A DNA stretch of 64,000 nucleotides, taken from the NCBI GenBank assembly GCA_963664945.1, contig OY761822.1:406080-470079 (forward strand), in the 5' to 3' direction. A program made the translations under genes and the position numbers. Below, in pieces: positions 25,164 to 28,314 of the stretch; within the stretch, counting starts at the first letter, position 1; each line of letters begins with the position of its first letter. This DNA is from Gammaproteobacteria bacterium (lineage in GTDB: Bacteria; Pseudomonadota; Gammaproteobacteria; Steroidobacterales; Rariloculaceae). The notes under the pieces were generated by a model. The model did no database searches, had not been told where the DNA came from, and saw nothing but the letters and a program-made list of their open reading frames with translations.

Positions 25164-26627
25164 TCAATGGCCACCACTGCGCACTTCTTCCAGCACGGCA
25201 TCGATCATTTCCTTCGCCGCCCGTGGCGATGGCGACGTCTTGGCCAGCGCCCGGAAGACGTTTCGATAAATGTCCGCGTCCTGTTCTTCGAATAGTGCGT
25301 CGCCGTTACGGACCGCGCGGAAACCGTCCAGGCGCGCTTCAGCAGAATCCAGAATGCTCAGATTGCCGTGCTCTGCCTCGCCGCTCTTGACTATAGCGGT
25401 CCGAGCCTGCCGAACGCGCTGTGCTGCGCCCGCTATCAGGCAAGTGGCATCTCGGTGCGTCAAGTATCCAGAGCCGGCAAGCTCGCAAGTGTCGTCAATG
25501 TCAGCTAACAGGGATTGCAATTTGCGCGTCCTGTTACGCTTTTTCGATTCGTTACGGCAACGGTCCGCGATTTTGCGGCAAACCGCCGCGAGATGATTCT
25601 CGAAGTTACGAACATGCGGCCCGGGCTCAAAGTAATCGCGCCGGGCGTTGGGAACCATTTCCGAATCCAGCACATGGATTTCGCCAACACACCACCGATT
25701 GAAGCGCTCTTCCGGAAACAGGTGATCGAAAATCGACTCGTCTCCTATCTGAATGTTCCCCATGCGCGCCCGTATTCCCCGGATTCCCAATCGCTTGGGA
25801 ATTGCGCCGAGATAGGATGAGTGCATCACCCAGCCCACTGCTGCGGCGTTACCTCCATTCAATGAGGGGATGCGCACAGGCTCCAACGCCTTGAAAGGGT
25901 CACTCTTGCCTTCCGAGAAGTCGATCGCGGGACCGTGCGGACGTGTAACCGGCATCGGGTCGCCCGCTATCGTCACGCGCAGGGACAACGGCGAAACATG
26001 CTCTGCAAAGACTTCATCGATCTCTTTCGCGAATGGGTGTCCCGACCGCATCGGAACGGGGCAGACCTCGCCGATATAGGCACGCACCAGCCGCTCATTC
26101 AGTATCGCTCCGGCGACGTGGCGCCCCACTCCGCGAATCTGCGCCTCGAAAAAATGTCCCGGTCGCTCAGTGCCACTGGGAGAGTCAACAGTTACGCAGG
26201 CACGGAGCGCGTCCCAGGTCGGCTTGGCGCCGCGCATGCGCCGATTGATTTCCAAACCGTCCCAAACCACCCTTGTGACGGGGCCGCCTGCGCTGGAGCG
26301 AGTCAGGAAAGTTACGCTATCCGCAAAAGCCAGCCCGGAAAGGCGCCCAATTCCACGAAACCCCCTGTCGCGGCCCAGCGACTTCCGGCTTTGCGCCACG
26401 GGCAGCAGCGCTTGCTCGGCCTCGCCCGGCGAGAGCCCCGGTCCGTCGTCCAGTATGGTGATGCTGGCCTCCCCGCGGTTTACGGTGACAACGACAGACC
26501 CGCGCCGACCGTCGGACTGGGCCAAGGAGTCTGCGGAATTTTGAATATATTCCCGGTAGACCGCCAGCGGATTGTCGTACATGCCGGAAGTGATCAACCG
26601 GAAAATTCCCGCGCCCACGCTGGTCAT
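25164..26627 (-). CDS. GHKL (Bergerat-fold, Hsp90/MORC-like) ATPase
   Basis: N-box REYIQNSADS, G1 box ILDDGPGL, G2 box GFRGIGRLSG. ATG 26627 avoids overlap with the upstream gene. Last gene of the minus operon. Confidence 0.8.
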   Translation of the reverse strand: MTSVGAGIFRLITSGMYDNPLAVYREYIQNSADSLAQSDGRRGSVVVTVNRGEASITILDDGPGLSPGEAEQALLPVAQSRKSLGRDRGFRGIGRLSGLAFADSVTFLTRSSAGGPVTRVVWDGLEINRRMRGAKPTWDALRACVTVDSPSGTERPGHFFEAQIRGVGRHVAGAILNERLVRAYIGEVCPVPMRSGHPFAKEIDEVFAEHVSPLSLRVTIAGDPMPVTRPHGPAIDFSEGKSDPFKALEPVRIPSLNGGNAAAVGWVMHSSYLGAIPKRLGIRGIRARMGNIQIGDESIFDHLFPEERFNRWCVGEIHVLDSEMVPNARRDYFEPGPHVRNFENHLAAVCRKIADRCRNESKKRNRTRKLQSLLADIDDTCELAGSGYLTHRDATCLIAGAAQRVRQARTAIVKSGEAEHGNLSILDSAEARLDGFRAVRNGDALFEEQDADIYRNVFRALAKTSPSPRAAKEMIDAVLEEVRSGGH

Positions 26628-26658
26628 TCTTCCTCGCTCGCCTCCGACATGGCGACCT

Positions 26659-28314
26659 CTATATCGCCTTGCCAGGTTCTGGCAAGACCCGGGTCGCGCT
26701 GCGCCGCCCGTCGGCTTGTTCCGCCGAGAAAAGGCCGGCATCCTCCACAATTTCCTCTTCGGCAGGCAGGTTGCCGCCAACGTCGAAACAGGGCAGCGAG
26801 GGTTGCGCGCCTTCATTCACGCTCCCGATCTTGTTTCTCGTGTCCAGAACGTAAAATCGAATCACCTCGCGGATGCCGCGGTCCACGCCACCGTCGCAAG
26901 CCCATCGGAGGTAATTTACTCGTCGTGCCCCGGAAGAAGCACCGGAGTTGGCAAGCAGTTGGACCAGTTCGCCCTCCTGGCGTTCCGAGAGCCGCCGCCG
27001 TGCGGCCTCGTATTCATCGCGTACCGCCTTGCCAGCCCCTTTCTCATAGTGTTCCCGGTGGAAAATAAAGCCGTGGGGCAAGGTCAGCAATCGCTCGAAT
27101 TCGTGCCTGCCGCCGCCATAGGCGCGTGCGAAAAAATCCGCGCTACCGCTCACAATGCCCCGCGTCGCCTGCAGCATGATCTGAAAGGACCGCAGGAAGT
27201 AGGGGTTCCAATTCCTTCCCACATGCGAACGGTCCTTGAGGTTGACTGGTTGATACCTCATTGGGAAAGACCAGATGCGAATGCCAAGTTCACGATTAAG
27301 TTCCATATTCATTCGCATGCGTTCGTACAAGTCCGCCGGAGAATCCATGAAGTTGTAGAGCATGTAGTTGGACAAGTTGACGATGGCGTTGTCTGCCGCC
27401 ATGCGCACGGCCTTTTCGTAAATCTTGCGCATGCCCACGTGATCGAATGCGATGCGCAGAGGGCTGATGCAGATGGTTGAGATTTCCTTCAGAAACACCG
27501 GGGACTTGACCAATATTCTGGCATCGACACCCTGATTGAAATCCACCCGCCTCTTGACGGTACCGGCTCCGTCTCGCCTGAGCGTTGCGTCGGGAACAAA
27601 TCCCAGATCGCGTATTTCGGCGATGATCTCCTTGAACCGGGGGGCCGCCGTAACGTTGTTGTCCATTAGTATCAGGTCTTTTTTTTCGCCATGCGCCCGT
27701 GCGATACCAGACACCAGCCGGGAAAGCGGCGGCATGTCGCGCTGCGCGCCTTCCAGTTTCGGAACACCGCAGAATCTACATCGCCGCACGCAGCCGCGCG
27801 AGGCATACCCGAAGTAGGCATCGTAAACAGGGTATCGGTACTCCGCCTGATCCAAAATCGAATAGTCGGGGACGAGTTCCTCGATCGGGGCCCCCTGGAG
27901 GTCGGCCGCGCCGAAGTCGCCATCGCCGTCGCTTAGCTGAAGGGATACTGCGGGCGGGCCACTCAACAGACCCTTGATGAACCGCACTCCCGCCCATCTT
28001 GGCTCCTTCAGGTACTCGTCGTGCATCAAAGACGCGGCAATTCCCCCCACGAACACCCTTTCCGGCTGCCCATTGGCGGCTCGAAGCGCAAAGTCTATGG
28101 CAGTAGCTGTTCGACTCCACTCGAAGCTGAACAGCGTGGTCACATACACCCGGTCCCAGGCTCGGTCGAAAACGTGAGGGTCCTCTCCCTTCACGAAGGC
28201 GACGCGGTCGCCGCGCCCTTGGGGGCCGTGATAAGCGGCAAGCTTCATCAGACCCAGAGGTGGGTACTTATTCCGGTAACCCGGTTCGATAAGCAGGATG
28301 TTGCGGCGGCTCAT
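26659..28314 (-). CDS. radical SAM enzyme with B12-binding-like N-terminal domain
   Basis: N-terminus [23 protein letters not shown] (class-B-type Rossmann domain). Cluster motif [15 protein letters not shown] (CxxxCxxC at 27769..27792). ATGA overlap with the upstream ParB-like gene. Confidence 0.85.
   Translation of the reverse strand: [551 protein letters not shown]

Follow-up and report, generated by a model that had tools for sequence, protein, structure and literature searches.

A divergent radical S-adenosylmethionine (rSAM) enzyme and a GHKL ATPase form the invariant core of a six-gene cassette in a Gammaproteobacteria bacterium of the family Rariloculaceae (assembly GCA_963664945.1, contig OY761822.1), and comparison with related loci shows that the modules accompanying this core are exchanged. 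The stretch analyzed, referred to here as the window, comprises 64,000 nucleotides (contig positions 406,080 to 470,079), and its features are given in window positions. The six-gene rSAM-GHKL cassette is apparently undescribed. With a confidence just short of even, we interpret the pair as the core of a conflict (defence-type) cassette, mobile and modular in make-up, whose action on nucleic acids would follow a modification-plus-restriction logic. A role in defence is indirectly suggested by the mobility of the cassette, the exchange of its modules, its nuclease partners and the defence genes in its flanks.

A six-gene insert in a housekeeping neighbourhood

The six genes form an insert of low guanine-plus-cytosine (GC) content that splits the conserved rsmG-parA-parB-atp housekeeping neighbourhood. 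The GC fraction of the island is 0.573, compared with 0.645-0.655 in the flanks, as calculated from the composition of the window. The island and its immediate surroundings are composed as follows.

22117..29306, both strands: whole island, 7.2 kb, between parA and rsmG
22159..23181, plus strand: ParB-like protein 1 (ParB-like-1 or ParB1), 340 amino acids by the public gene call; the longest open reading frame (ORF) starts at 22117
23168..23611, plus strand: PD-(D/E)xK-type nuclease candidate, 147 amino acids; shares nucleotides with the stop of ParB-like-1 and the start of SNF2
23596..25053, plus strand: SNF2-family helicase/translocase, 485 amino acids
25164..26627, minus strand: GHKL (Bergerat-fold) ATPase, 487 amino acids; Hsp90-like N-terminal and middle domains, helical C-terminus
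26659..28314, minus strand: divergent rSAM enzyme, 551 amino acids
28311..29306, minus strand: ParB/DndB-like protein 2 (ParB-like-2 or ParB2), 331 amino acids by public gene calls
20917-21798, minus strand: parA, flank of the island
29694-30395, minus strand: rsmG, other flank of the island
19876-20766: bona fide chromosomal parB, with domains ParB_N, HTH_ParB and ParB_C

ParB-like-1, the nuclease candidate and SNF2 constitute a plus-strand operon with overlapping junctions, which converges with the minus-strand trio of ParB-like-2, rSAM and GHKL. An earlier note on this sequence had described a 551-residue rSAM enzyme with a CX3CX2C motif at residues 175-182, translationally linked to a GHKL gene and adjoining a ParB-like gene. 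The ORF and the motif were confirmed, and these three genes do belong together, but the unit is larger than noted, as ParB-like-1, the nuclease candidate and SNF2 are also part of it. The linkage holds at a different junction from the one proposed: the stop codon of ParB-like-2 overlaps the start codon of rSAM in an ATGA, whereas the rSAM stop codon (TAG) is followed by a 31-nt spacer containing GAGGAAGA before the GHKL start at 26627, leaving rSAM and GHKL without an overlap in the window. A 4-nt overlap between the two genes does occur on two plasmids described below, pNL1 and pR132505.

Beyond the island, the rsmG side holds rsmG, mnmE, mnmG and an oligopeptide ABC transporter, and the parA side holds parA, the bona fide parB, the atp operon, glmU and glmS. 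The mnmE/mnmG block is typically origin-proximal. The parA gene lies ~ 320 nt from the island's ParB-like gene (ORF start 22117). Since a separate, bona fide parB is present, the ParB-like genes of the island are not the chromosomal ParB.

An invariant core with exchanged modules

Eighty genome loci, with rSAM proteins 62-80% identical to that of the window, were compared. The GHKL gene lies downstream of rSAM on the same strand in 79 of them and ParB/DndB-like genes accompany rSAM in most, so the association of these genes, on which the earlier note had staked its proposal, withstands the comparison. The remaining partners vary. About 55 of the 80 loci carry the ParB1-[147-residue gene]-SNF2-ParB2 module, either before or after the core, and 14 carry upstream a set comprising a NurA-like gene, a gene for a 565-residue HerA-like protein and a second GHKL gene (GHKL2). 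The partner of the closest relatives (L001 and L002) is a 772-residue fusion of DndB and HEPN_Swt1, and a related protein of ~ 770 residues occurs in several other loci. The 565-residue protein is 30% identical (E = 1e-66) to the product of a HerA-annotated gene in Marinitoga camini virus 1, where the NurA-like protein matches a NurA-type neighbour gene and an rSAM relative is adjacent.

The same layouts are kept by rSAM homologues of 30-60% identity found in IMG/VR and on metagenome contigs. When ParB-like-1 was taken as the starting point, two homologue look-ups both led to the order ParB1-147aa-SNF2-ParB2-rSAM-GHKL; a metagenome scan with the same protein gave three loci, too few for judging whether the nuclease module occurs without rSAM. 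Median pairwise identity is 0.68 for rSAM, 0.51 for SNF2 and 0.45 for GHKL. That rSAM is conserved more strongly than its partners is expected of a modifier with a fixed chemistry and faster-evolving partners.

Further GHKL paralogues (~ 580-620 residues, HATPase_c_3 at 1e-15), together with partners of 320-350 residues that have no family assignment, recur beside the cassette (L014, L017, L018, L027, L028, L034, L035 and L044), which points to a broader range of GHKL-centred modules in these islands. In three related metagenome contigs (L136-L138), ParB-like-2 is apparently split into pieces of 144 and 170 residues, and a gene of the spore-photoproduct-lyase family (PF20903; 362 residues, 7834-8922) lies directly upstream of ParB-like-1.

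Judged by record titles, the 80 loci fall into at least 11 phylum-level groups: Chloroflexota, Gamma- and Alphaproteobacteria, Binatota, Acidobacteriota, Gemmatimonadota, Latescibacterota, Nitrospirota, Thermodesulfobacteriota, Actinomycetota and Poribacteria. Identity between rSAM proteins from different phyla reaches 0.87-0.93, as in the pair from Gammaproteobacteria locus L053 and Gemmatimonadota locus L057 (0.92). The names Poribacteria, Spongiihabitans, Poriferihabitaceae and Aldehydirespirator come from the sponge-microbiome literature, and most of the metagenome-assembled genomes (MAGs) that carry the cassette probably originate from sponges. An rSAM identity of 87-93% across phyla in sponge-associated MAGs strikingly illustrates how genes are shared throughout a habitat.

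The sponge habitat is not the only one in which the cassette occurs. Twelve plasmid records, representing ten distinct plasmids, carry an rSAM gene whose product is 56-57% identical to that of the window; their hosts are cultured Novosphingobium, Rhizobium, Mesorhizobium, Agrobacterium, Bradyrhizobium and Roseomonas. Two of these carriers are cultured and tractable, and both have an extra DGQHR gene directly upstream of rSAM.

pNL1 (L130), Novosphingobium aromaticivorans DSM 12444, NC_009426.1 114946-125348, SARO_RS17510-17535: PIN-GHKL2 / DGQHR-rSAM-GHKL / DndB-HEPN
pR132505 (L131), Rhizobium leguminosarum WSM1325, NC_012854.1, RLEG_RS34110-34150: ParB1-nuclease-SNF2-ParB2-DGQHR-rSAM-GHKL / GHKL2-PIN

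Among the nearest flanking ORFs of the loci, at least 13 of 127 match PADLOC defence models at E ≤ 1e-5 (a raw count without a matched background), including PDC-S01, CBASS cyclases, REase_II, AbiEii, SoFic, MkoB and GajA.

The cassette could be a weapon or maintenance device of mobile elements, used in competition or addiction among plasmids, integrative and conjugative elements or prophages; it would then benefit its own carrier and shut out rivals instead of serving the host chromosome. Of the 12 plasmid matches, seven are typed as conjugative, one genome locus (L082) adjoins DUF932, RadC and ERF genes, copies are present in predicted viral contigs, and ParB/Srx enzymes mediate conjugative-plasmid conflict according to work cited in PMC10853773. 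However, the window and many chromosome-scale MAGs have the cassette in the chromosome, free of surrounding element genes, and we regard this explanation as quite improbable. It also overlaps mechanistically with the conflict-cassette interpretation.

The rSAM enzyme, its partners and its phage relatives

The rSAM ORF is a real gene and its family is abundant. More than 7,470 clusters at 90% identity match it at E ≤ 1e-3 (8,000 candidates scored), and in a 50%-identity library it is matched by 1,683 representatives, 252 of them at E ≤ 1e-30. The CX3CX2C motif, the protein's single Fe-S motif, reads CVRRCRFC, and all 40 diverse homologues compared have its cysteines (C175, C179 and C182); none of the remaining three (residues 282, 473 and 509) is conserved in this set. 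No model in NCBIfam or Pfam reaches its cutoff for the protein. The radical SAM model PF04055 gives 23.4 bits, below the cutoff of 29.5, yet 30 of the 40 relatives match it at E ≤ 0.001 (best 4.3e-9), and NCBIfam gives just a 17-bit match to RimO.

An AlphaFold2 (AF2) model calculated with the 40 homologues has a predicted local distance difference test score (pLDDT) of 86.5 and a predicted template-modelling score (pTM) of 0.84. It comprises a Rossmann domain of four to five strands (residues 1 to ~ 110), a linker, a barrel containing the CX3CX2C motif (~ 165-370), an all-helical C-terminal domain (371-495) and a tail that is disordered from residue 493. The motif thus sits in a partial TIM barrel modelled at high confidence, as is characteristic of the radical SAM superfamily. 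In Foldseek searches of the PDB, the best matches are MgmA, TsrM, MiaB, OxsB, TokK, CysS and RimO (E = 2e-10 to 4e-6), with template-modelling (TM) scores of ~ 0.4 and 11-15% identity, and the Rossmann domain superposes on those of TsrM, OxsB, TokK and MgmA. Matches in BFVD are to generic rSAM, methylthiotransferase and B12-like folds. By sequence, the best PDB match has an E-value of 0.015 even with the family profile, and there are marginal matches to RimO and MgmA around the Fe-S motif.

The predicted fold shows that the enzyme belongs to the Rossmann-plus-barrel branch of the superfamily, which holds class B and the methylthiotransferases; class B itself is not assigned from the fold alone. 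A class-B-like layout had been proposed in the earlier note, and it is supported by the modelled N-terminal Rossmann domain and barrel, by the class B enzymes among the fold matches and by the B12-binding family PF02310, which matches three of the 40 relatives (up to 1.6e-8). The window protein itself has no match to PF02310. Class B enzymes bind cobalamin in the base-off form through lower-face residues that are not conserved (PMC12931638). Near-invariant residues of the N-domain (E10, Y13, K16, D54 and Y57) suggest that it binds some ligand. The barrel is lined with polar residues that are invariant or nearly so (D218, N219, N220, D258, N260, Q261, D264, R287, D291, N321, D324 and R332). The N-terminal loop PPLGL...AA is of a type found in rSAM enzymes with B12-binding domains, and the LMDNNV segment is reminiscent of the GQNV-type motif of MiaB.

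Among class B enzymes, MgmA/QCMT (9ccb), TsrM (6wte), OxsB (5ul2), TokK (7kdx) and CysS (9n1d) share with the window protein the order of a Rossmann domain followed by a CX3CX2C barrel. The window protein differs from them in its identity of 11-15%, in lacking a PF02310 match of its own and in having DNA-directed rather than biosynthetic partners. The methylthiotransferases MiaB, RimO and MtaB give comparable fold matches, with LMDNNV aligning to the RimO segment VAQDTT. Methylthiotransferases act on RNA or protein, the substrate of MiaB being a nucleic acid. A methylthiotransferase identity was nevertheless rejected because the protein has only three conserved cysteines and a helical C-terminal domain: the N-terminal cysteine triad for the auxiliary [4Fe-4S] cluster (UPF0004) is absent, and the all-helical C-terminus has no TRAM match in Pfam. 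Sequence comparison places the enzyme as a very divergent one without a characterised relative, and the search for a close relative of known function, suggested in the earlier note, returned none.

An ordinary metabolic role, in which a class B methylase of cofactor, lipid, natural-product or ribosomally made, post-translationally modified peptide (RiPP) biosynthesis lies beside DNA genes by chance, is highly improbable. The fold class is common to the natural-product methylases TsrM, TokK and CysS, and sponge symbionts are rich in natural-product pathways. However, the cassette lacks a precursor peptide, a transporter and any biosynthetic partner, the same DNA-directed neighbours turn up in different phyla, on plasmids and in phages, and no model of a characterised subfamily matches. 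A RiPP or natural-product role was rejected on gene context, which also bears out the earlier note's placement of the gene outside any cofactor or natural-product cluster.

The GHKL neighbour is a Bergerat-fold protein. It matches HATPase_c_3 at 6e-9, its ATP-binding motifs E26xxxN30, D60xGxG and G89xRGxG stay unchanged throughout 32 homologues, and an identical gene call of 487 residues is present in public assemblies, in agreement with what the earlier note had read from the sequence. The best Foldseek matches of its AF2 model (pLDDT 81.7) are the N-terminal and middle domains of Hsp90, TRAP1 and Grp94 (E ~ 1e-16).

Neither ParB-like protein of the window has a Pfam match at E ≤ 0.01, and PDB searches by sequence gave nothing useful for them. 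The two are paralogues, as seen from their cross-matches. ParB-like-1 has conserved D..NPR and GNTR motifs, and several of its homologues carry a precomputed match to PF02195 (ParB_N), one being named 'ParB N-terminal domain-containing protein'. ParB-like-2, the neighbour that had been called ParB-like from sequence, has conserved NPRVY and EGNSRLA motifs and matches a PHROG 'ParB-like partition protein' at 7e-8, with a further ParB-like match at 3e-6; the annotation of its counterpart in Rhizobium is 'ParB N-terminal domain-containing protein'. Both contain the conserved G-x-x-R nucleotide-binding motif of the ParB/Srx proteins, which include DndB/DGQHR (GNTR in the first, EGNSR in the second).

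The 147-residue protein has no match in Pfam or PADLOC. In 38 homologues, RPD (residues 53-55) and EAK (69-71) are at least 90% conserved, and because this RPD...EAK arrangement matches the PD-(D/E)xK signature, the protein is a candidate nuclease of that type. The SNF2 protein has Pfam matches to SNF2-rel_dom (8.5e-27) and Helicase_C (4.8e-15) and carries the motifs GLGKT at residue 41 and DESQ at residue 137. Among PADLOC models it best matches the helicase parts of ZorD (3e-41) and DpdE (9.5e-35), and it also matches that of DrmD; all three parts are generic.

Phages possess relatives of the rSAM enzyme as well. The window protein matches PHROG 9298 at 1.3e-39, and IMG/VR, scanned with a profile, yielded 46 loci. 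The closer ones have full cassettes; the distant relatives (24-37% identity) are found on low-GC phage contigs and have no GHKL neighbour. Six loci illustrate the viral setting (positions are those of each record).

L103, rSAM 7923-9455: DnaB, clamp, uracil-DNA glycosylase (UDG)/3'-5' exonuclease, rSAM, PolA, Dam, clamp loader, gp32
L119, rSAM 7965-9242: rSAM, clamp, clamp loader, then Pol III alpha
L118, rSAM 7995-9419: YqaJ exonuclease, rSAM
L100, rSAM 8004-9827: near Abi_alpha and PolA
L129, rSAM 7995-9098: near Dam and sugar-nucleotide enzymes
L132, Marinitoga camini virus 1, rSAM 6998-8080 (gene UF08_54): next to HerA/NurA

Virtually none of the family's invariant residues is lost in the phage relatives, in the N-domain or elsewhere, so they probably carry out the same chemistry, one that can coexist with DNA replication. 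In two phage-like contigs, a second, different rSAM gene (PF04055 plus Radical_SAM_N2) directly follows the relative (L101, 9374-10609; L122, 9341-10588).

Replication and repair proteins in these surroundings could also mean that the cassette is a DNA repair or maintenance module, in which rSAM directly reverses or processes a lesion in the manner of spore photoproduct lyase and the partners (an Hsp90/MutL-like ATPase, SNF2 or HerA translocases, and nucleases) process the site. Protection of DNA in chemically harsh niches such as sponge tissue would then be the reason for the spread of the module on mobile elements. The NurA/HerA, UDG, YqaJ and polymerase neighbours agree with this, as do an SOS-response-associated peptidase near the cassette on pNL1 and the PF20903 gene that abuts it in L136-L138. 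Against this stand the hallmarks of conflict, namely HEPN and PIN partners, effector exchange, DndB-like genes and defence genes in the flanks. Moreover, rSAM has no sequence similarity to spore photoproduct lyase, and its fold matches favour class B enzymes and methylthiotransferases. We consider a repair function improbable.

Comparison with known systems and possible function

Searches of the six island proteins against PADLOC-DB v2.0.0, NCBIfam and Pfam gave no system assignment. Marginal PADLOC matches relate GHKL to REase_II (0.0022) and the ParB-like genes to PD-Lambda-5_A and PDC-M38A; rSAM has none. Full-text literature searches found no description of an rSAM-GHKL cassette.

The organization of the cassette parallels that of the DNA modification and restriction systems Dnd and Dpd. 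ParB-like proteins accompany the modification modules of both (PMC10853773), and here too a ParB-like protein, analogous to DndB or DpdB, adjoins a putative modifying enzyme. Further points of likeness are the similarity of SNF2 to DpdE, the nuclease-bearing restriction modules and the DndB-HEPN fusion in the closest relatives. The putative modifier here, however, is an rSAM enzyme paired with a GHKL ATPase, and the six island proteins have no matches to DndA/C/D/E, DpdA or the 7-deazaguanine (preQ0) pathway in Pfam, NCBIfam or PADLOC. The GHKL/MORC restriction-modification operons of Iyer et al. 2008 (PMC2292703) are likewise mobile and combine GHKL with SNF2 and nucleases, but no rSAM or ParB partner is mentioned for them and the GHKL protein here is closest to the Hsp90 fold. 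As for Zorya, SNF2 best matches the helicase part of ZorD, whereas ZorA/B/C have no matches among the six island proteins.

As in viperin systems and Ophion, where OpnA is the rSAM protein, an rSAM enzyme is the key component of the operon. Viperin lacks a Rossmann N-domain and PADLOC gives no match to such models here, and the partners in Ophion are PHP and phosphoribosyltransferase (PRTase) proteins. The statement in the earlier note that only viperin-like rSAM enzymes are known in defence is outdated, as Ophion is a validated example that is not a viperin (bioRxiv 10.1101/2025.09.30.679545).

In a second possible mode of defence, triggered by infection, GHKL and the ParB-like proteins would sense foreign DNA, and rSAM would then turn a nucleotide into an antiviral analogue or a signal, a small molecule that poisons replication or activates the nuclease modules. 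Viperins make 3'-deoxy-3',4'-didehydro nucleoside triphosphates (ddhNTPs), and OxsB rearranges deoxyadenosine phosphates. OxsB, a nucleotide-rearranging class B enzyme, is among the top fold matches, and barrel residues D218, N219, N220, D258, N260, Q261, D264, R287, D291 and R332 would suit a nucleotide substrate. Validated rSAM defence works through nucleotides or, as proposed for Ophion, through interference with nucleic acids, and HEPN and PIN partners are typical effectors of abortive infection. Yet phages keep homologues with identical invariant residues in their own replisome modules, which is hard to square with a replication poison, and the cassette has no recognisable signalling domain of the cyclase or sensor type and no signal-binding effector domain. 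A small-molecule mechanism thus seems unlikely.

The modification-plus-restriction interpretation is preferred because a constant, conserved modifier is combined with exchangeable nuclease modules, as in Dnd, because the partners are ParB-like and DpdE-like, and because phage relatives occur in replisome contexts. Action on DNA or nucleotides, raised as a possibility in the earlier note, draws its support from context, since every partner gene is DNA- or RNA-directed and the phage homologues lie beside DNA polymerases, clamps and Dam methylases. The rSAM enzyme would cleave SAM reductively, and the resulting 5'-deoxyadenosyl radical would introduce a single, fixed covalent alteration, either in DNA or in a deoxynucleotide that is later incorporated into it. 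The translationally coupled ParB/DndB-like NTPase and the Hsp90-like GHKL clamp may load or gate rSAM on DNA. Resident DNA would be marked by the rSAM product, and unmarked DNA would be attacked by translocase-nuclease modules, SNF2 with the PD-(D/E)xK candidate here and HerA/NurA-like, HEPN or PIN proteins elsewhere. Phages with rSAM alone might copy the mark to escape.

Several observations speak against a modification-plus-restriction cassette. No sequence-recognition subunit was recognised among its proteins, no PADLOC model matches rSAM or GHKL as part of a system, and the GHKL fold is nearer to the chaperone Hsp90 than to the DNA clamps MutL or MORC. The island has neither an integrase nor a tRNA gene, nor direct or inverted flanking repeats of at least 10 nt; defence genes are moderately enriched in the flanks; and a median rSAM identity of 68% is unusually high for a defence gene. 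In addition, the phage homologues are just 24-37% identical and could have another substrate. The fullest form of the proposal, that rSAM installs a new, radical-generated 'self' mark on DNA, that phages counter it with the same enzyme in their replisomes and that the cassette is passed around among unrelated phyla inhabiting the same sponges, is possible but doubtful.

The rSAM enzymes known in immunity act at the nucleotide level (viperins and probably Ophion), and the known role of rSAM enzymes on DNA is repair, by spore photoproduct lyase. We know of no rSAM enzyme that writes an epigenetic or immune mark on DNA. The family described here is abundant and highly constrained, is tied to ParB-like, GHKL, SNF2, HerA, NurA and HEPN proteins and is shared with phage replisomes, which makes it a testable, concrete lead to new DNA chemistry and new immune logic. 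Novosphingobium aromaticivorans with pNL1 and Rhizobium leguminosarum WSM1325 offer cultured hosts for such work.

Apart from the island, the window contains a second stretch of lower GC content (~ 9200-12400; 0.58-0.60), with glmU on one side and the atp operon on the other. In it are a 413-residue ORF without a family match (9261-10502), a PIN-domain toxin (10963-11364; PF01850 at 5e-6) and a ParE-like toxin (11744-12076; weak match, 1e-3) with a possible antitoxin ORF upstream.

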